12,851 nt of DNA from a virus: the UHGV virus genome UHGV-0102871; one strand, given 5' to 3'. The position numbers and the translations under genes were made by a program. Of this stretch, positions 2,356-12,851 are shown piece by piece; positions within the stretch are counted from its first letter, which is position 1; every line of letters starts with the position of its first letter. The notes below the pieces were generated by a model. That model did not search any database and was not told where the DNA came from. It saw only the letters and a list, made by a program, of their open reading frames with translations.

Positions 2356-3327
2356 TCAGTAATGAATTTTCGCGCAGGGGATCAGGTTATCTTTCAGAGC
2401 GGTAAGCACTTCGATAGCCTGCTCGCGGGTTAAGCTGGTTTGGCTGGTGAGCGCGTTAACGATGTTGGTGCCGACCGTCTTGCGGTGCTTAACGTCAGCT
2501 TCACGCTTTGCCTGCTCATCGGCGAGGCGCTTCTCTTCGGCCAGGCGGGCATCTTCGGCCTGTTTGGCCTTCAGGCGCTCGGCTTCAACCGCCGCGGCTT
2601 TTTCGCGTTCCGCCCGGGCTTCCGCTTCCTGCTTCTCGCGAGCTGCACGCTGTTCCGCTTCGACGCGCTGGCGCTCCGCCAGTTCAGCGCGGGCTTTCTC
2701 TTCGGCTTCACGGCGCGCTGCGGCTTCAATCTCCGCTTTGTGCTTCGCTTCGGCATCGCGGCGGGCTTGTTCTGCCGCTTCCTGTTTCAGCCGCTCATCA
2801 CGTTCACGCTGAGCCTGTTCCGCCAGACGGCGCTGCTCTTCGCGGTCACGGTCAAAATCCTTGTTCATCAGTAGAGCCATTTCGTGGTCCGCTTCGAACT
2901 TGGCAGCCAGCTCCTGATCGAACCTGATGTTCATCTCCAGCGCTTCGGCGTGCATCGCGTTCATGGCTTCTTCAGCCTTAATGCGTTCCTGCTCGGCTTC
3001 CCATTCGGTGAGTGGGCGGCGGGTCGCATCGCGCAGCTCGTCGCAGGCATCAACGAATCGCTTAATTTCGGCCTCAGCCGGACGCACAGCCTCTTTCAGG
3101 CGCTTCAGGTACTCACGGCCCGGCTTTTCGATTGCCGTCTTGCTGCGGGACACCTGCGCTGCCAGAGAGGCAACACGGTCACGGCCTTTCTTCGTGGACA
3201 GGTCCGGCACTTCGTTTACAGCCTGGCGGATTTGCTCAAGGTACGCGTCAAGGCCGCCCGCTACGTAAAGCACTGGGGCCTGTTCCGGCTTGATTTCGAT
3301 GACAGTTAAGTCCGTTACTTCGCTCAT
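2356..3327 (-). CDS. Hypothetical phage protein with long charged E/R/A/K-rich coiled-coil segment (323 aa)
   Basis: ORF-track ORF with AGGAGA Shine-Dalgarno before ATG 3327. Globular N-terminal ~110 aa, then ~160 aa of low-complexity heptad-like repeats (AEQAQRERDERLKQEAAEQARRDAEAKHKAEIEAAARREAEEKARAELAERQR...), then a ~50-aa C-terminus. The several plus-strand ORFs overlapping it are composition artefacts. Confidence 0.7.
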   Translation of the reverse strand: MSEVTDLTVIEIKPEQAPVLYVAGGLDAYLEQIRQAVNEVPDLSTKKGRDRVASLAAQVSRSKTAIEKPGREYLKRLKEAVRPAEAEIKRFVDACDELRDATRRPLTEWEAEQERIKAEEAMNAMHAEALEMNIRFDQELAAKFEADHEMALLMNKDFDRDREEQRRLAEQAQRERDERLKQEAAEQARRDAEAKHKAEIEAAARREAEEKARAELAERQRVEAEQRAAREKQEAEARAEREKAAAVEAERLKAKQAEDARLAEEKRLADEQAKREADVKHRKTVGTNIVNALTSQTSLTREQAIEVLTALKDNLIPCAKIHY

Positions 3328-3884: not shown

Positions 3885-4553
3885 TCATTCATTCTTTGGT
3901 ATGCCGCAAAGGGCGTTTAGCGTTTCAACGGGAATGGCAAGTGCGGTGCTGGTCGCTTCACGGCGTTCCACCTCAGGCAAATATGGCACTGCCTCAGGCC
4001 ACATCTCAGCCAGTTTTTTAACAGTTGAGACTTTGGTTAGAGCACCTTTAACCTGCAATTGGAAGGCATCAACTTCATCGTAAAGAACGTTGATGGTTAC
4101 CGTCGATTCAGTGAGTCGGTCGTGTAATTTTCCAACTTTCTTCAGCGTGCTGTAACTTTCAGGAACGAAACCCGAATCAATTACAGGCGCGAAGGAAGCT
4201 CCGAAGAACAGGTCGCTTTCAAGATCGTGCTTACCAATATGTTTTCCACGGTGGCGATAGCGATGATCCAAACCGTTCCTGGCTAATTCGTGATACTCAC
4301 CATTAATAATGACCTTTAAAGTTGCAGTTTTAGCGCCGACCTGCATCTTGATGAAGGAGTTATCTTTGAAATCTTCCCGAGCCTTAGTTATTTGCTCATC
4401 GCTAGTGTTTTCCTGCTTGAGCAATGCCTGTCGAATTTCTTCAACAATTTTCGCCCTCTCATTAACCGCAGCTTTCGCTTTCTCAAACAATGGGGATGCG
4501 AGAAGCAGGTTATGGCATAGCTGATTTTTAATTTCGTTGTTAAGACGAATCAT
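3885..4553 (-). CDS. AT-rich orphan gene (222 aa), unknown function; first gene of the leftward operon, in the sieB/ral position
   Basis: ORF-track ORF with GAGGGT Shine-Dalgarno 7 nt before ATG 4553. Visibly lower GC than flanking genes (by eye, not computed). Soluble-looking, no recognised domain. Bracketed by a ~400-bp leader upstream and an intrinsic terminator downstream. Confidence 0.75.
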   Translation of the reverse strand: MIRLNNEIKNQLCHNLLLASPLFEKAKAAVNERAKIVEEIRQALLKQENTSDEQITKAREDFKDNSFIKMQVGAKTATLKVIINGEYHELARNGLDHRYRHRGKHIGKHDLESDLFFGASFAPVIDSGFVPESYSTLKKVGKLHDRLTESTVTINVLYDEVDAFQLQVKGALTKVSTVKKLAEMWPEAVPYLPEVERREATSTALAIPVETLNALCGIPKNE

Positions 4554-4969
4554 TGACTTACCCTCTGTCGTTACCCGCTGATGCGGGAGAAATGCTTTGG
4601 CGATGTGGTAGGTGGGAGACCCATTTCGACCCGATTCGGCCTACTTATCTTCGGCAATAGCTCCTCGGGCCTCGCCGCTTTACGTGCGACATATTCCCGT
4701 CCATGAACCCTTCACCACATCCCATAACATTCCCTGTATTGGTCAGCGCCAACTCCCTGCCAGTGTTGCCCGTTCTCACGCCGTTCTCGCTCTCGCGTGG
4801 GGATACTCTCTCACCGACCGGATCGCACCCGGTGATACAGCACGTTTACGTGTAGGGGTCTTAACAGGTCATTGACGCTGTAAATCTGCATGTTGTTAAA
4901 AAGCAGGCGACTTGCTGTCCGCCGCTGGCTAACTTCGCTCAGCTGTCGATGTTTCGTTTCGATGGGGTA

Positions 4970-5048
4970 AATTTAGCGTGATGCTAAATTATGCGCAATA
5001 GCAAAATGCTAAATTGTTGAATGGTTTTATTTAGCGTATTGATTAATA
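4970..5048 (-). promoter_or_regulatory. oL-like operator cluster and probable pL region: three sites with half-site ATTTAGC-N5-GCTAAAT
   Basis: 4970-4990 is a perfect 21-bp palindrome (AATTTAGCGTGATGCTAAATT). Two degenerate copies at ~4996-5015 (AATAGCAAAATGCTAAATT) and ~5028-5048 (ATTTAGCGTATTGATTAAT). Same half-site as the cI/cro intergenic operators. Exact -35/-10 not resolved. Confidence 0.55.
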
Positions 5049-5085
5049 AGCGATTAAAAATTTACAGCGAAGGAATTCGGGACGT

Positions 5086-5109
5086 AAAAAAGCCCGCGCG
5101 ATGGCGGGC
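5086..5109 (-). terminator. Intrinsic terminator downstream of the repressor gene (minus-strand GCCCGC-CAUCGC-GCGGGC + UUUUUU)
   Basis: Plus strand reads AAAAAA-GCCCGC-GCGATG-GCGGGC, 20 nt past the cI-like stop. On the minus strand this is a 6-bp GC stem followed by a U6 tract. Confidence 0.65.
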
Positions 5110-5129
5110 TTGAGGGGTTTTGCGTGAGG

Positions 5130-5807
5130 TTATGGGATGTTTAGTATTTTGGCATCAACCACAACGCCGATGATTTTGCAGTTTCCATTAATTTCTAGCA
5201 TTGGATATGCGGGGTTAAGGGGCTTTAGGAAGCGTCTGCCGGCATCGATTACAAGCTTCTTAAAGGTCGCTTCGTTATCGCCTTCTAGCTTCGCGACAAC
5301 CAGCTTTCCGTTGCGCGGCTCGACTTCAGGATCAACAAGTATCGCTGCTCCCTCGGGTATGCTCAGTCCAGCCGGGGAGGTCATAGAATCCCCTTTAACG
5401 TCCAGCCAGAATGAATCTTCTGAGCAGTCAACAGTCGTGTCATACCAGCGATCTATCGCTCTTCGGTGATAAGGTTCTACAGCTTCCATCCATTGCCCCG
5501 CGCTTACCCAGCTGATTACAGGATAACTTCCTTTTGTCTCGTTCAGTCCTCGAAATGCAACGTTCGAAGGTTCTTCACTGGCGTGTAAAACATCCATCCA
5601 GCCAAAAGGCAGATCAAGCGCAGTTTCAATTTTGCGAGCCATCTTATCGCCGATATTGCGATGAGGGTTTGGTCCCAGTAGCTGGCTAAGCGCAGCCGGA
5701 CTTGTCTCGATGAGCTCGGCAAACTGCGCTTTGGTCATTCCAGACTCGTGCTGACGCTTCTCGTACAGCGCTTCCAGGTTGGCTTTTCTGATTTCTTTAT
5801 TTTCCAT
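5130..5807 (-). CDS. cI: cI-like prophage repressor (HTH N-domain plus LexA/S24 peptidase C-domain), 225 aa
   Basis: C-terminal domain carries the S24 Ser/Lys dyad context (DVKGDSMTSPAG ... ATFKKLV) and LexA-like strands (GAAILVDPEVEPRNGKLVVAKL; KIIGVVVDAKI). N-terminus is HTH-like. Start set at the internal ATG 5807-5805 (MENKEIRK...) just left of the operators; the ORF-track ORF extends to 5924. Confidence 0.85.
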   Translation of the reverse strand: MENKEIRKANLEALYEKRQHESGMTKAQFAELIETSPAALSQLLGPNPHRNIGDKMARKIETALDLPFGWMDVLHASEEPSNVAFRGLNETKGSYPVISWVSAGQWMEAVEPYHRRAIDRWYDTTVDCSEDSFWLDVKGDSMTSPAGLSIPEGAAILVDPEVEPRNGKLVVAKLEGDNEATFKKLVIDAGRRFLKPLNPAYPMLEINGNCKIIGVVVDAKILNIP

Positions 5808-6174: not shown

Positions 6175-6717
6175 ATGCATTCACTTGCGTATCAACACAA
6201 TACCGGAATACACCCGGGAGCGATGATAAACCGCGCTCAAGCTAAAGCGACGCCGGACCACGAAAAGATCCGCGATGCGGTCCGTGCCTGGTCATCGGCG
6301 CTGGATAATCAGGACGTGGTGTCAGCGCTGATCATCAACGAATACCGGGAGCAGGGCGGGACCGCCATCAGCTTTCCGGACGACATCAGCCGGGCGCGCC
6401 AGAAGCTGTTCCGCTTCCTGGATAACCGCTTCGACTCTGAGCAGTACCGCGAGAACGTGCGCCAGCTGACGCCCGCAATCATGGCCGTTTTGCCGCTGGA
6501 GTATCGCCATCGACTTCTTCCAGAGGACAGTTTTATGTCCCGCTTAGCTCGACTTGAGAAAGAAACGAGCGAGGCGAAAGTGGCCGTTGCGATGAACGCC
6601 CCGCGTCACCAGAAGCTCAAGGAACTCAGTGAGGGGATTGTAGAGATGTTCCGTGTCGACCCGGATCTGACCGCGCCGCTGATGGCTATGGTCACTTCGA
6701 TGTTGGGGGTTATGTGA
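6175..6717 (+). CDS. YdaT-family protein (180 aa) in the cII-equivalent position
   Basis: AGGGAAAG Shine-Dalgarno upstream. Motifs IINEYREQGG... and TPAIMAVLPLEYRHRL resemble Rac prophage YdaT-family proteins as recalled. Follows the YdaS-like gene as in Rac. Confidence 0.6.
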   Translation: MHSLAYQHNTGIHPGAMINRAQAKATPDHEKIRDAVRAWSSALDNQDVVSALIINEYREQGGTAISFPDDISRARQKLFRFLDNRFDSEQYRENVRQLTPAIMAVLPLEYRHRLLPEDSFMSRLARLEKETSEAKVAVAMNAPRHQKLKELSEGIVEMFRVDPDLTAPLMAMVTSMLGVM

Positions 6718-6953
6718 TGGGAAGTTTCAAAAATGGCGAAAGCCAGTCTGCGCGAACAGAACTGGCCTTCAGATGCAAATCGTGTGCACTCATTGCAGGA
6801 GGAATAATGGCAAAAAATCCACGCTATTACCATACCTCTGTACATAAAAACATAACCCGCGACCGCTTCATCCGCTCGGTTAACCCGATTGTGGCAGAGA
6901 AGATGCGCGCCATCCTGGAAGAACTGAAACGTAAGGAGAGTGGCCGTGGGTAA
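6717..6953 (+). CDS. Small hypothetical protein (78 aa; possibly 48 aa from ATG 6807)
   Basis: ATG 6717 overlaps the YdaT-like stop (TGATG). An in-frame ATG at 6807 has a strong AGGAGG Shine-Dalgarno. The 3' end overlaps the start of the O-like gene. No recognised homology. Confidence 0.4.
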   Translation: MGSFKNGESQSARTELAFRCKSCALIAGGIMAKNPRYYHTSVHKNITRDRFIRSVNPIVAEKMRAILEELKRKESGRG

Positions 6954-7845: not shown

Positions 7846-9268
7846 TTTCATGGCTGTACCACAAAACCTCGAAGCAGAGCAGAGCGTTATCGGTGGCCTG
7901 CTGCTGGATGATGACAACAGCGAGCGAGTCCAGAAGGTTCTGGCGATGCTCAAGCCTGAATCGTTCTACAGCCGACCTCACCAGCTGATCTTTGCCGAGA
8001 TGCGCCAGATGTTCCGCGACAACAAGCCAGTCGATGGTCTGACATTGTTCGACGCGCTCGAAGGCAAAGGGCTCGCGGAGCAGGTAGGTGGCTTTGCTTA
8101 CCTGGCGGAGATCGCCAAGAACACTCCCAGCGCTGCAAACATCGTGGCATACGCTGCGTCAGTCCGGGAAGCCGCAATGGAGCGCTACGGTATCAGCCGC
8201 CTGACCGAAGCTACTGAGCTGCTGTATTCCCGCAATGGCATGAGCGCCACGCAGAAGTACGAGGCCATTCAGGGTATTTTCACCCAGCTCGCAGACCATT
8301 CAAAAACCGGTAGTCGCCGTGGGTTGCGGTCGTTCGGCGAGGTTATGGATGACTGGGTAGCAGATCTGGAGAAACGCTTTGCCCCTTCAGGCGAACAGCG
8401 CGGCATGAGCACCGGCATCCCGTCACTCGACCGGCTGCTGGCGCCGAAAGGTCTGGTTAAAGGCTCTCTGTTCGTGATTGGCGCAAGGCCAAAGATGGGC
8501 AAGACAACCCTGTACGGTCAGATGGCGATCAACTGCGCGGTTCGTGAGAAAAAGCCAGCGCTGATGTTCAGCCTCGAAATGCCGGGCGACCAGATCCTCG
8601 AAAAACTGGTTGGTCAGAAGTCTGGAGTTAACCCGAGCATTTTTTACATGCCAGCCACGGATGACGCCGATGACCAGTACCAGGGCGATTACGACGGCGA
8701 CTTTAAGAAGGCGATCGCCACCGCCGGGCGATTGAGTGAAATCGACATGCTGTACATCGACGATACTCCTGGCCTGTCACTGGCGCACATCGTTAGCGAA
8801 AGCCGCCGAATCAAGCGCGAGAAGGGCTGCGTAGGAATGATTTTGGTTGACTACCTGACTCTGATGACCGCCGAAAAAGCCGACCGTAATGACCTTGCCT
8901 ACGGGATGATCACCAAAGGGTTGAAGAACCTCGCTAAAGAGCTTGGCTGCGTCGTCGTGCTGCTGACCCAGCTCAACCGCGAACTGGAGAAGCGAGTGAA
9001 TAAACGCCCGTTACCGAGCGATTCCCGCGACACAGGACAGATTGAGCAGGACTGCGACTACTGGGTTGGTATCCACCGGGAAGGTGCTTTCGATGACAGC
9101 GTGCCGCCGGGAGAAACCGAGTTAATCCTGCGACTCAATCGCCACGGCAGTACCGGAACGGTTTATTGCAATCAGATCAACGGGGCAATTTACGACACAG
9201 ACCAGCAGGCCGCCGCCGCAGAACGCCGCGGGCGTGAGCAGCAGCCGAAAAAGAAAGGGGGATTCTGA
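7835..9268 (+). CDS. dnaB: Replicative DNA helicase, DnaB family (P22 gp12-like)
   Basis: DnaB N-terminal domain signature (LEAEQSVIGGLLLDD...) and Walker A motif GARPKMGKTTL. Length ~478 aa. Start overlaps the O-like gene's 3' end; start set at ATG 7835, with GTG 7832 also possible. Confidence 0.9.
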   Translation: MTADFMAVPQNLEAEQSVIGGLLLDDDNSERVQKVLAMLKPESFYSRPHQLIFAEMRQMFRDNKPVDGLTLFDALEGKGLAEQVGGFAYLAEIAKNTPSAANIVAYAASVREAAMERYGISRLTEATELLYSRNGMSATQKYEAIQGIFTQLADHSKTGSRRGLRSFGEVMDDWVADLEKRFAPSGEQRGMSTGIPSLDRLLAPKGLVKGSLFVIGARPKMGKTTLYGQMAINCAVREKKPALMFSLEMPGDQILEKLVGQKSGVNPSIFYMPATDDADDQYQGDYDGDFKKAIATAGRLSEIDMLYIDDTPGLSLAHIVSESRRIKREKGCVGMILVDYLTLMTAEKADRNDLAYGMITKGLKNLAKELGCVVVLLTQLNRELEKRVNKRPLPSDSRDTGQIEQDCDYWVGIHREGAFDDSVPPGETELILRLNRHGSTGTVYCNQINGAIYDTDQQAAAAERRGREQQPKKKGGF

Positions 9269-9612
9269 TGACCATAACAATCCGCGGGCAGATTCTTGCA
9301 GCCCTGCGTAACAACCCGGGCCTGAACAGTGCTCGTATTGCCAGCATGATCGGCATGACCACCAAAAAGATTTCCGGCCCGTTAAGTACGTTGTTTGCAG
9401 ACGGCCTGATCGAGTTCGAAGGCAAGCACGGACAGCGGCTTTATCGGCTGACCGATTACGGCATGAAATACGCACCAGAAACAATCCCGGCTATGCCGAA
9501 GGGAAATTCGAAGCTGGTGCAGCGTACAGAGGCAAACGTGATCTGCCAGGAGTGCCGCAACAGCGCGGCGATGAGAAGGGTATTGATGGTTTGGGGGAGG
9601 GTAGGGGTATGA
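9268..9612 (+). CDS. Hypothetical winged-helix DNA-binding protein (114 aa)
   Basis: ATG overlaps the helicase stop (TGATG). HTH-like segment SARIASMIGMTTKKISGPLSTL. Function unknown. Confidence 0.55.
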   Translation: MTITIRGQILAALRNNPGLNSARIASMIGMTTKKISGPLSTLFADGLIEFEGKHGQRLYRLTDYGMKYAPETIPAMPKGNSKLVQRTEANVICQECRNSAAMRRVLMVWGRVGV

Positions 9613-11058: not shown

Positions 11059-11083
11059 AAGGCCCTTAGGGGCCTTTTATTCT
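11059..11083 (+). terminator. Rho-independent terminator (AAGGCCC-TTAG-GGGCCTT + TTTTATTCT)
   Basis: Perfect 7-bp stem with 4-nt loop followed by a T-rich tract, 37 nt after the DUF551 gene stop. Confidence 0.65.
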
Positions 11084-11115
11084 ATGATAAACGGACTTTG
11101 TTTGAGAGTGACGCC

Positions 11116-11442
11116 ATGAAGTCCAAGAAGCTAAATGCTGAGCAGCAATACAAATTAGACCTTGAATTGGTCAAGAAGAAGCCTGCGAACCGGACCGAGG
11201 CAAAAGCCCATTTGGCCGCACAGTTACGAATCAGCAAGTACAAGACGCAGACCTCTTCCAAAATCCGCGTAGGCAGTTTTAAGGGGCGGAAGAAGGTACA
11301 TTTCAGTAAGGCGGAACAAGCAGCCAGGGCAGCACTAAATAAAGCAAATGCCATTAGATTTTCCGAAGGGGAGGTCGAGTCCGTCGATACGGATAGAATC
11401 TCAGAAAGTAACAAACGCTGGCGCGGGAGAACTGCTGACTAA
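11116..11442 (+). CDS. Highly basic Lys/Arg-rich hypothetical protein (108 aa); first gene of the accessory cassette
   Basis: ATG 11116 with weak GAGAG Shine-Dalgarno; the ORF track starts at TTG 11098. Very basic composition ([10 protein letters not shown]...[13 protein letters not shown]...[12 protein letters not shown]...[10 protein letters not shown]). No recognised family. Confidence 0.5.
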
Positions 11443-11696
11443 TGTCTGACTGGAATATTGCTGCAAAGCCGCAGGAAGAACGCGACAAGGTCAACGTTGA
11501 CCTGGCAGCCTCCGGCGTAGCCTACAAAGAGCGCCTGAACATGCCGGTTATCGCTGAGGTGGTGATGCGTGAGCAGCCCGAGCATTTGCGTGATTACTTC
11601 CTTGAGCGTCTGAAGTTTTATCGCGAGAAGTCGATAGATTTACCAAGGGCATCCGATCCGCGGTACATGGAAATGGCTGATTCTAATAAAAAATAA
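11442..11696 (+). CDS. Hypothetical protein (84 aa), translationally coupled to the basic protein
   Basis: TAATG stop/start overlap with the upstream gene. No recognised family. Confidence 0.5.
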
Positions 11697-11747
11697 GCCC
11701 TAACGTGTTGATGACCTTATCAGACCTAAACAGGAGGTTTTTCTAAA

Positions 11748-12287
11748 GTGATTAATATCATTGTTGATTCCAATGCTTGGAATTTTTTACATGTGAGTGG
11801 GATCTCCTTAAGCAACGAGCTTCTTAGCGATTATAACTTTCAGATAACATTAGAGGTGTCTCGTGAATTGCAGGAGTTAGTAGGCAAGGAAGGGAAGGAA
11901 GCTCTTTATGAATTCTTTGTAAGTGAGACTCAGTCGCTTGAAGAGCCCTTATGCTATTTTGGTTTTTACAATGAGTCAGTGCCTGCTGATGAACAGCGGT
12001 TTGGTGGATTTGGTGTTGGCGGGTTCGCATCTGTTCATCAAGATGATTATTTTCAGAAAACATTCCGCCAAATAAAATCATCAAAGCGTGGTATTTATTA
12101 TGGCAATGAAGCTGACATGCTGATCGGGTCAAGAGGAATTGGGAACACTTTCATACTAACAGAAGATAATAATAAGTCAGGCCCGATGAAAGAGGCTGAG
12201 AACACTATCTTTGTTTCAAGAAAATTTCCTATGACTGTGGAGCAGTTTAAGGAATATCTTGATCTTGAAACCTCAAAAACTCTTTAG
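11748..12287 (+). CDS. AT-rich PIN-like domain protein (179 aa), putative nuclease
   Basis: GTG start with AGGAGG Shine-Dalgarno ~10 nt upstream. Markedly AT-rich versus neighbours (by eye). N-terminal MINIIVDSNAWNFL, acidic E36/E40, D99/D100, and C-terminal NEADMLIGSRGIGNTFILTEDNN fit the four-acidic-residue PIN pattern (hDTN ... DalIAA ... lvTxD). Confidence 0.55.
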   Translation: MINIIVDSNAWNFLHVSGISLSNELLSDYNFQITLEVSRELQELVGKEGKEALYEFFVSETQSLEEPLCYFGFYNESVPADEQRFGGFGVGGFASVHQDDYFQKTFRQIKSSKRGIYYGNEADMLIGSRGIGNTFILTEDNNKSGPMKEAENTIFVSRKFPMTVEQFKEYLDLETSKTL

Positions 12288-12363
12288 TTACTGCGCTTTG
12301 ATTTTTCATAATCACTCCGCCATAATCATGTCATCGGAGCCTGAACAACTCCGGTGACTTCTT

Positions 12364-12387
12364 CGCATTTAAGGGGACTTAAATGCG
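12364..12387. promoter_or_regulatory. Perfect 10-bp inverted repeat with 4-nt loop (CGCATTTAAG-GGGA-CTTAAATGCG) upstream of the NinB-like gene
   Basis: Seen directly in the sequence. Not followed by a T-tract, so more likely a protein-binding site or RNA hairpin than an intrinsic terminator. Confidence 0.3.
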
Positions 12388-12474
12388 ACCACAATCTGAA
12401 CTCATCGCCTTGTCACAGATGCAGACATGCACCTGCGATTTTCTGCATTCTGCGGTTTCCGTCAAGGAGGCCGT

Positions 12475-12851
12475 ATGATTATCCCCAAAGACGGCATCAA
12501 GCTACACCGTGGAAATCTTGGTGCTATCACTCAGCATCTGAAGCCACTTCTCGAAAACGGTGAGTGCTTCCGGCTCCAACTCAAAGACTGGCGCGAGAAG
12601 AGAAGCCTTTCACAAAATAGTCTGAGCCACGTTTGGTACAAGGAAATAAGCGACTACCTGATCAAGTCTGGGCGCACTGACGCAACGCCTGCATGGGTAA
12701 AGCGAAACCTCAAAAAAACTTATCTGGGTTATGAAGAGGTTGAGTACACCGATTTCGTCACCGGAATTAAGACGATTGAATTAGAACTCCGCCACACGTC
12801 CGATCTGGACCTGCCAGTTTGCCGAACAGCACAACGCGGTGCCATTCAGTC
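12475..12851 (+). CDS. ninB: NinB/Orf-family recombination protein (putative), 3'-truncated by the window end
   Basis: AAGGAGG Shine-Dalgarno 4 nt before ATG 12475. Manual translation MIIPKDGIKLHRGNLGAITQHLKPLLENGECFRLQLKDWREKRSLSQNSLSHVWYKEISDYL... carries the RSLSQN...W motif resembling lambda NinB (RSLDQNRKLW, recalled). Open to the end of the window. Confidence 0.5.
   Translation, partial: MIIPKDGIKLHRGNLGAITQHLKPLLENGECFRLQLKDWREKRSLSQNSLSHVWYKEISDYLIKSGRTDATPAWVKRNLKKTYLGYEEVEYTDFVTGIKTIELELRHTSDLDLPVCRTAQRGAIQ

Follow-up and report, generated by a model that had tools for sequence, protein, structure and literature searches.

A predicted solitary PIN-fold nuclease gene beside a phage P1 HOT-type theta gene in the nin region of a lambdoid prophage

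The virus genome UHGV-0102871 carries, in a stretch of 12,851 nucleotides which is the early region of a lambdoid prophage (the window), three small genes between a DUF551 gene and ninB, here called gene 1, gene 2 and gene 3. The question raised by this locus is whether the three genes form one system. In the original prediction they were seen as a low-GC accessory cassette ending in a PIN-like protein, and as a candidate toxin-antitoxin, abortive-infection or anti-phage module. The explanation we favour, and hold with middling confidence, is that the interval is composed of three independently exchangeable nin-region modules and that gene 3 is a solitary PIN-fold cargo nuclease with a role in conflict. 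Genes 1 and 2 would be the gene of a small basic protein translationally coupled to a theta gene of the phage P1 HOT type, and gene 3 would be a single-gene insertion encoding a lone PIN-fold nuclease found in cargo slots of prophages and plasmids. The features of the interval are the following.

11059..11083, plus strand: intrinsic-terminator-like hairpin with U-tract, 3' of the DUF551 gene
11116..11442, plus strand: gene 1, very basic protein of 108 amino acids (phrog_14068), stop codon overlapping the theta start (TAATG)
11442..11696, plus strand: gene 2, DNA polymerase III theta homologue of 84 amino acids, P1 HOT orthologue
11697..11747, plus strand: spacer of 51 nt, AGGAGG 10 nt before the GTG
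11748..12287, plus strand: gene 3, predicted PIN-fold protein of 179 amino acids (phrog_26388), no Pfam family, GTG start
11697..12296, no strand: low-GC segment of 600 bp (GC 0.393), present here and not in Klebsiella phage KO-TP1
12297..12474, plus strand: conserved lambdoid ninB-upstream element, right boundary of the insertion
12475..12851, plus strand: ninB (YbcN family), continuing past the window end

The three open reading frames (ORFs), the TAATG overlap at 11442, the 51-nt spacer and the GTG start were all found as the original prediction had described them, and the GTG is the favoured start of gene 3 because its homologues begin at the same position. The compositional part of that prediction held for one gene of the three. 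A check of GC and codon positions gave gene 3 a GC of 0.389 and a third-position GC (GC3) of 0.367, against 0.531±0.041 and 0.588±0.081 for 15 other genes, and the lowest-GC 540-bp stretch of the whole window begins at 11751; gene 1 (GC 0.483) and gene 2 (GC 0.502) lie within the spread of the 15 other genes.

The insertion of gene 3 is evident by comparison with Klebsiella phage KO-TP1, in which the ninB-upstream element follows one base past the theta stop codon, where the window has the 600 bp from 11697 to 12296. Window positions 11439-11680 align to L030 2456-2697 and window positions 12297-12478 to L030 2718-2899 (homologous loci are cited by their numbers in our set). Against the distant gene 3 loci L001, L022 and L023, nucleotide homology opens 2-6 nt around the start codon and ends at the stop codon. 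As homology between contexts is limited to it, the gene 3 coding sequence alone is the conserved unit. Mosaic breakpoints lie between each pair of genes, including gene 1 and theta, and because they separate each pair the three genes are three modules; the idea of a cassette moving as one unit is thereby lost, as genes 1 and 2 also occur elsewhere without gene 3. Horizontal acquisition of gene 3 is supported by the 600-bp indel relative to KO-TP1, by its aberrant GC and by its absence from most related prophages, so that the acquisition proposed earlier for the whole interval stands for gene 3, which is missing at this position in KO-TP1, and finds nothing in the unremarkable composition of genes 1 and 2. 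The near-identical E. coli copies have too few substitutions for a ratio of nonsynonymous to synonymous substitution rates (dN/dS). The spacer was also considered as a degraded theta 3' remnant, and this was rejected, the alignment being unconvincing, unlike the clear remnants in L005 and L010 described below.

What does gene 3 encode? The protein has no Pfam, NCBIfam or PADLOC match at E-values up to 1, its tblastn search of 50,697 phage records gave no match, and the sole match of a sequence-profile search of the PDB was a marginal one to the PIN protein 1o4w (E 0.076). A structural model built from 20 homologues of 46-96% identity (predicted local distance difference test, pLDDT, 78.8; predicted template modelling score, pTM, 0.78) is confident except for residues 71-92, where pLDDT is below 50. 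The modelled fold has three layers (alpha/beta/alpha), its sheet is parallel, and it can be superposed on known PIN domains. The Foldseek list of PDB structures for this model consists almost entirely of PIN proteins, with weak E-values of 0.03 or higher; a fold search against BFVD gave nothing significant. The model thus supports assignment of gene 3 as a PIN-fold protein, in line with what had been suspected from the pattern of its acidic residues.

The topology places these residues where a PIN active site would have them. D7 ends strand 1 (IIVDSN), helix 2 (ITLEISRE) holds E36 and E40, the helix that comes after strand 3 begins with D123 (NEAD), and D140 follows strand 4 (ILTED). D7, E40 (with E36), D123 and D140 are invariant in the 20 close homologues. 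Among 58 diverse relatives, which are 20-59% identical to the window protein, D7 (57 of 57) and E40 (58 of 58) never vary, D123 is kept by 56 of 58, and 54 of 58 have an acidic residue at position 140. The candidate catalytic set is therefore D7, E36/E40, D123 and D140; of the aspartates named as catalytic in the original prediction D7 and D123 are conserved, and the D99/D100 pair is not. An insertion of approximately residues 62-115 splits the domain and carries a strongly conserved motif, FGF...P..EQR.GGFG.GGF.S, in which F71, G72, F73, R84 and G87 are nearly invariant among the 58 relatives.

The family is larger than a fast search suggests. A word-indexed search returned 26 gene 3 clusters, all from Enterobacterales, while an exhaustive HMMER search with the family profile returned 182 clusters at E-values up to 1e-3, nearly all of 175-200 amino acids, whose members match across the insertion too; the family thus comprises at least 182 clusters (clustered at 50% identity). 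The 58 relatives compared above are drawn from these clusters. None of the 58 has a significant Pfam match, and a few distant relatives only give marginal ones to NYN (E 0.032), DUF4411 (E 0.039) and PIN_9 (E 0.072), all of them PIN-like. DUF4411 (PF14367), NYN and PIN_9 resemble gene 3 in size and in their PIN-like layout, and UniRef labels one distant relative (P0221) as a DUF4411 family protein, whereas the window protein gives no match to them at all. The gene 3 family is an uncharacterised, Pfam-less, insertion-bearing PIN family.

In genomes gene 3 is rare, with one locus among 100,044 species-representative genomes and with 3 of 5,426 complete E. coli genomes carrying it. The 1.2-kb locus of the window shares 99.8% identity with a prophage of E. 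coli L6-21, where the NCBI Prokaryotic Genome Annotation Pipeline (PGAP) lists a hypothetical protein, a DNA polymerase III subunit theta, a hypothetical protein and then a YbcN-family (NinB) protein. E. coli L6-21 was isolated from waterfowl manure, and the locus sits on its chromosome. Most of the named homologues of gene 3 come from Enterobacter, Raoultella, Scandinavium and Pantoea. With a near-identical copy in E. coli and homologues mostly in other genera, the prophage module crosses genera.

If gene 3 belonged to a fixed system, a constant partner would be expected beside it. The close homologues of gene 3 were found in nine arrangements:

Context 1 (the window, L019 and L020): gene 1, theta, gene 3, ninB
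Context 2: gene 1, theta, an ORF of 66 amino acids, a copy of the ninB-upstream element, 520 bp, gene 3, a second copy of the element, a ninB remnant
Context 3: as context 2 (66-amino-acid ORF, duplicated ninB-upstream element, ninB remnant), without theta
Context 4 (Pantoea): theta, an ORF of 105 amino acids, an ORF of 74 amino acids, gene 3
Context 5 (Pantoea): theta and gene 3 overlapping by 4 bp in a PL-type operon, a theta 3' fragment after gene 3
Context 6: another locus with a theta-gene 3 overlap
Context 7: DUF1643, gene 3
Context 8 (Phytobacter): an ORF of 677 amino acids, labelled DNA methyltransferase-like from reading its translation, gene 3, ninB
Context 9: a DUF551-like gene, gene 3, a ninB-like gene

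No neighbour gene is conserved across these contexts, and Pfam shows nothing common to the small adjacent ORFs. More distant relatives occupy other places again. Those with 30% identity stand alone on plasmids of Photobacterium and Nitrosospira, near DUF2971 and DUF262 genes, and those with 24-27% identity are found where Citrobacter and Leclercia prophages end, past the tail-fibre genes, with a DinI homologue about 216 nt upstream (L032 4545-5558, L036 4544-5558, L037 479-1479). Like theta, DinI is a small gene of DNA metabolism derived from the host, and it is the second such gene to recur upstream of the gene 3 family.

These arrangements bear directly on the view of the interval as a three-gene toxin-antitoxin or abortive-infection cassette, in which a VapC-like toxin would be neutralised by the product of an upstream gene. 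The VapC-like fold predicted for gene 3, its low GC, and a small upstream gene with, in some loci, a 4-bp overlap of the kind known from type II toxin-antitoxin operons, are what such a cassette would show. However, the upstream gene is of the theta/HOT family and lacks a DNA-binding domain of antitoxin type, genes 1 and 2 commonly occur as a pair where gene 3 is absent, and gene 3 moves alone with no conserved flank, its neighbours ranging from the 677-amino-acid methyltransferase-like ORF through DUF1643 and DUF551-like genes to non-coding DNA. There is no co-variation with theta. The only tandem repeat near gene 3 is a 9-nt unit repeated 2.2 times inside its coding sequence, no tandem-repeat RNA antitoxin was found there, and neither Rfam nor PADLOC gave a match. 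We consider this cassette very improbable, and a VapBC-type reading is likewise unsupported.

One neighbour nevertheless recurs. In five of the nine contexts a theta gene is found upstream of gene 3, no farther away than about 1.2 kb; the remaining four (L010, L018/L028, L021/L023 and L022) are without a full-length theta. Since theta homologues are present in just 37 of the 50,697 phage records, and yet stand upstream of gene 3 in five contexts, the link is too frequent to be dismissed. Three groups of Pantoea-type loci have a 4-bp overlap between the theta stop codon and the start of gene 3. In E. coli MLI104K1 theta and gene 3 form a 96.8%-identical block in a different backbone and behind a different upstream gene. 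In the Pantoea-type loci the last ~50 nt of a theta gene are found directly before gene 3, even with no full theta adjacent in L005 (5940-6000), L025 and L010 (5945-6000), and they contain the gene 3 Shine-Dalgarno sequence; the remnants correspond to the last 15-26 theta codons. A theta 3' fragment is also present downstream of gene 3 in L008 (6600-6674), L026 and L027.

These observations would suit a functional pair, in which theta binds or regulates the nuclease, or in which the nuclease acts at, or senses, the epsilon-theta part of DNA polymerase III (Pol III); such a pair would explain why both genes stay together at different prophage positions. Several findings make it unlikely. Gene 3 occurs in the four contexts without full-length theta, each of the two genes is common without the other (theta alone, without genes 1 and 3, is seen in KO-TP1 and RothC), and the two do not diverge together, theta of L005 and L008 being 86% identical and gene 3 48%. 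Theta in the window is a HOT orthologue of the ordinary kind, without additional domains, and the distant relatives of gene 3 follow a DinI gene instead. The remnants, moreover, are explicable by out-of-register illegitimate recombination together with a ribosome-binding site for gene 3 placed inside the last theta codons. Decidedly unlikely, in our estimate, is the general proposition that the link is functional at all, with phage theta or the host epsilon-theta module controlling or targeting the nuclease; its signs are the 4-bp overlap of the Pantoea-type loci, the joint transfer between E. coli backbones and the theta 3' remnants kept after relocation. If true, the two would make up a nuclease switch linked to the replisome, of a type so far undescribed. 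We take the link to be mostly historical, due to a common cargo slot and to the ribosome-binding site embedded in theta, with a functional link as the chief novel alternative.

The partial duplications around gene 3 would have the same kind of origin. The ninB-upstream element is duplicated on both sides of gene 3 in L001 (5303-5476 and ~6545-6720) and in L022 (5299-5474 and ~6545-6720), and these copies, together with the theta 3' end in L008, are read as the scars to be expected of out-of-register illegitimate recombination between mosaic phages. The same duplicated flanks, and the precise presence/absence polymorphism of a nuclease gene at conserved sequences, could be taken as marks of a selfish gene resembling those of homing endonucleases, its product cutting the theta or ninB-upstream sequence of phages which do not carry it, with the gene then copied into them. 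This we find hardly credible: we know of no PIN-family homing endonuclease, VapC-like PINs act on RNA, the flanking duplications are what out-of-register illegitimate recombination would be expected to leave and are not the product of double-strand-break repair, and gene 3 sits at several unrelated sites.

The recurrent neighbour itself is well defined. Gene 2 matches PF06440 (DNA_pol3_theta) with an E-value of 1.1e-34 and 118.4 bits against a cut-off of 34.6, and NF008207 of NCBIfam with 107.9 bits against a cut-off of 97, and it belongs to phrog_1105. The solved HOT structures 1se7/2ido are matched over residues 1-77 (E 5.4e-35) and the host theta structure 1du2 with an E-value of 2e-21; identity to P1 hot is approximately 77%. 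Judged by its sequence, gene 2 is a full-length orthologue of phage P1 HOT, a homologue of the theta subunit of DNA polymerase III, and it shows neither an antitoxin-type DNA-binding domain nor any extra domain beyond HOT. Of the three genes, none of which was matched to a lambdoid core function in the original prediction, this one has a recognisable family; genes 1 and 3 remain without a Pfam or NCBIfam match. HOT binds and stabilises the epsilon proofreading subunit of the host Pol III and can replace theta there (PMC2528190). The likeness of gene 2 to P1 HOT and E. coli HolE thus extends over the full length of HOT and above the cut-offs of both databases, and the differences are in its setting, a lambdoid nin region and not P1, and in its translational coupling to an upstream basic protein.

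Gene 1 is very basic, as had been stated (27 lysine and arginine against 12 aspartate and glutamate residues). Its ORF can open at 11098 (TTG) or at 11116 (ATG), and the ATG is favoured because the homologues, which form 43 clusters, all of Enterobacterales, are almost all of 108 amino acids. In six prophage loci of Citrobacter, Klebsiella and Enterobacter (L012-L017), all without gene 3, gene 1 lies directly upstream of theta and overlaps it, and after theta comes an unrelated ORF of 84 amino acids or nothing, and then DUF1367. Gene 1 accompanies theta and not gene 3. Searches of Pfam, NCBIfam, PADLOC and PDB sequences gave no match above threshold for it, tblastn gave none among the phage records, P1 included, and its AlphaFold model is poor (pLDDT 71.5, pTM 0.41).

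In E. coli MLI104K1 the place of gene 1 upstream of theta is taken by a basic protein of 60 amino acids of the phrog_16632 type (L040 3836-4018), which is likewise coupled to theta and shares with gene 1 only the C-terminal motif ...RF...V..VD...K.RGRTAD. The nucleotides of this motif in the MLI104K1 gene double as the theta Shine-Dalgarno sequence. The N-terminal helix of gene 1 (residues 11-18) reads QQYQLDLEL in most homologues. QLDLEL resembles the form QLxLxL of the beta-clamp-binding motif. Such a motif would fit a protein coupled to a Pol III theta homologue and is suggestive at the level of sequence, but the segment is predicted to be helical and in the window copy K replaces the Q.

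Which known PIN proteins does gene 3 come closest to? With the VapC-type PINs (VapC of Shigella and Salmonella, Caulobacter VapC1, Haemophilus VapC-1) it shares acidic residues at the same topological positions. It differs from them in being only 12-16% identical, in matching no PIN profile and in having its domain split by some 55 inserted residues that carry a conserved motif of their own; from VapBC systems it differs by having neither a VapB-type antitoxin nor a conserved partner gene.

A nearer parallel is DS-3, an E. coli system found by DefensePredictor, which is a validated single-protein defence against phage with a PIN domain split by an insertion and no antitoxin, whose catalytic mutants lose defence (PMC13092281); low GC is described in the same work as a feature of defence genes. 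Gene 3 is likewise a one-gene element with an interrupted PIN domain, no antitoxin and a patchy carriage, whereas DS-3 has 340 amino acids and an insertion of ~220 residues against the 179 amino acids of gene 3. Homology to DS-3 (WP_022645725.1) and to the PIN protein of DS-5 was considered and ruled out by hhalign, with a probability of 0.4% over 13 columns for DS-3, covering only short PIN motifs, and of 1.1% for the DS-5 PIN. As there is no sequence relation, DS-3 is an analogy and gene 3 is not a member of its family; by analogy DS-3 would be the closest functional counterpart of gene 3.

According to the explanation favoured here, namely a solitary cargo nuclease, the gene 3 product would be a metal-dependent endonuclease, most likely of RNA as are the VapC-type PINs. 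With no antitoxin, it would have to be restricted in its substrates or be kept inactive by its own glycine/phenylalanine-rich insertion. Its role would be in phage-host or phage-phage conflict, for instance in exclusion, in defence or in cleavage of host RNA.

A search of the 51-nt spacer that separates theta from gene 3 gave no sigma-70-like promoter. With a terminator ahead of it in the PR operon and no promoter to itself in the window, gene 3 would be expressed mostly from antiterminated early transcripts, and lytic growth is no less likely a time for its expression than lysogeny. The strongest rival explanation starts from here and sees gene 3 as a lytic-cycle accessory nuclease, made from antiterminated PR transcripts and cleaving RNAs of the host or of rivals, with tRNA, mRNA or the RNA components of defence systems as possible targets. 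Besides the Shine-Dalgarno-dependent GTG start and the missing promoter, this reading draws on the position of gene 3 in a delayed-early operon between the terminator and the ninB-upstream hairpin, on other homologues placed on the same strand in PL-operon or nin-region gene strings, and on the intact catalytic set, which would imply an active enzyme. We take it as a possibility to be kept in mind and not as the probable one, since the distant relatives at prophage ends, with a gap of more than 200 nt after DinI, have a location typical of lysogen-expressed genes, and the rare and patchy occurrence of gene 3 shows that it is dispensable for the lytic cycle.

Several points weigh against gene 3 being an independent cargo nuclease of conflict. 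A cargo gene that is purely independent would not account for the recurrent link to theta. Gene 3 has no match to any curated PIN profile, and the Foldseek E-values are weak. Nuclease activity, substrate and phenotype are predictions from sequence and model for every member of the family, and autoinhibition by the insertion is a guess, because the model is uncertain within the conserved insertion, at residues 71-92. There is, in addition, neither a sequence relation to DS-3 or DS-5 nor a match in PADLOC. Finally, no promoter was found from which gene 3 could be expressed in a lysogen, and a role in the lytic phase therefore fits better than a defence encoded by the prophage.

From the point of view of annotation, the three-gene cassette is corrected to a HOT/theta module and an unrelated insertion. 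The analysis defines a compact PIN-like family of ~180 amino acids that has no Pfam model, with an intact catalytic set and a conserved insertion, and carried singly. The novelty consists in this single-gene cargo family and in its unexplained affinity for theta genes. That solitary PINs lacking an antitoxin can protect against phage was shown only recently, with DS-3. Being small and easily cloned, the members of the gene 3 family are candidates for asking how a PIN nuclease with no partner stays harmless.

The surroundings of the three genes are those of a lambdoid early region. On the minus strand there are exonuclease and RecT-like genes and a CI-type repressor, and the plus strand carries cro, a cII-like gene, an O-like replication gene and a DnaB-type helicase gene, followed by Ea22, DUF7739 and DUF551 genes. 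The flanks given in the original prediction, the Ea22/DUF551 block and ninB, agree with the Pfam matches to Ea22, DUF7739 and DUF551 upstream and with ninB from 12475, though the Ea22 call barely passes the Pfam cut-off (27.2 against 27 bits). The terminator proposed after the DUF551 gene is seen as a hairpin at 11059-11076, with a 7-bp stem of which 5 pairs are G-C and a 4-nt loop, followed by UUUUAUUCU; after the stem and loop stands TTATTCTATG. Its free energy is -12.9 kcal/mol (z-score -1.8), and terminator-like matches in the region number 4 against 2.3 expected from shuffling, an excess of about twofold only.

The ninB-upstream element is 80-96% identical to HK225, phi80, HK639 and lambda-like phages. 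It contains a perfect 11-bp hairpin at 12363-12388 (-14.6 kcal/mol, z-score -4.7), with no U-tract after it, which corresponds to the IR4 annotated in phage phi80. Phage 82 carries annotations of a promoter and of a regulator site at this element. Rfam and tRNA scans of the window gave nothing relevant.

Outside the locus, the 114-amino-acid ORF at 9268-9612, after the DnaB-type helicase gene, is named protein ren by PGAP in L6-21 and has only weak winged-helix matches, with HTH_24 (E 1.5e-4) just under the cut-off. A minus-strand ORF of 222 amino acids (3885-4553) has a lowish GC of 0.45, and between it and the repressor gene lie about 575 bp without a substantial ORF, in which GC skew swings strongly. 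This part of the window (3885-5130), placed between the PL operon and cI, is possibly a further accessory slot. The minus-strand gene at 2356-3327 encodes a protein of 323 amino acids with a long, highly charged repetitive stretch rich in alanine, glutamate, arginine and lysine, and it has the highest GC of the window (0.60-0.65) and an extreme AT skew.

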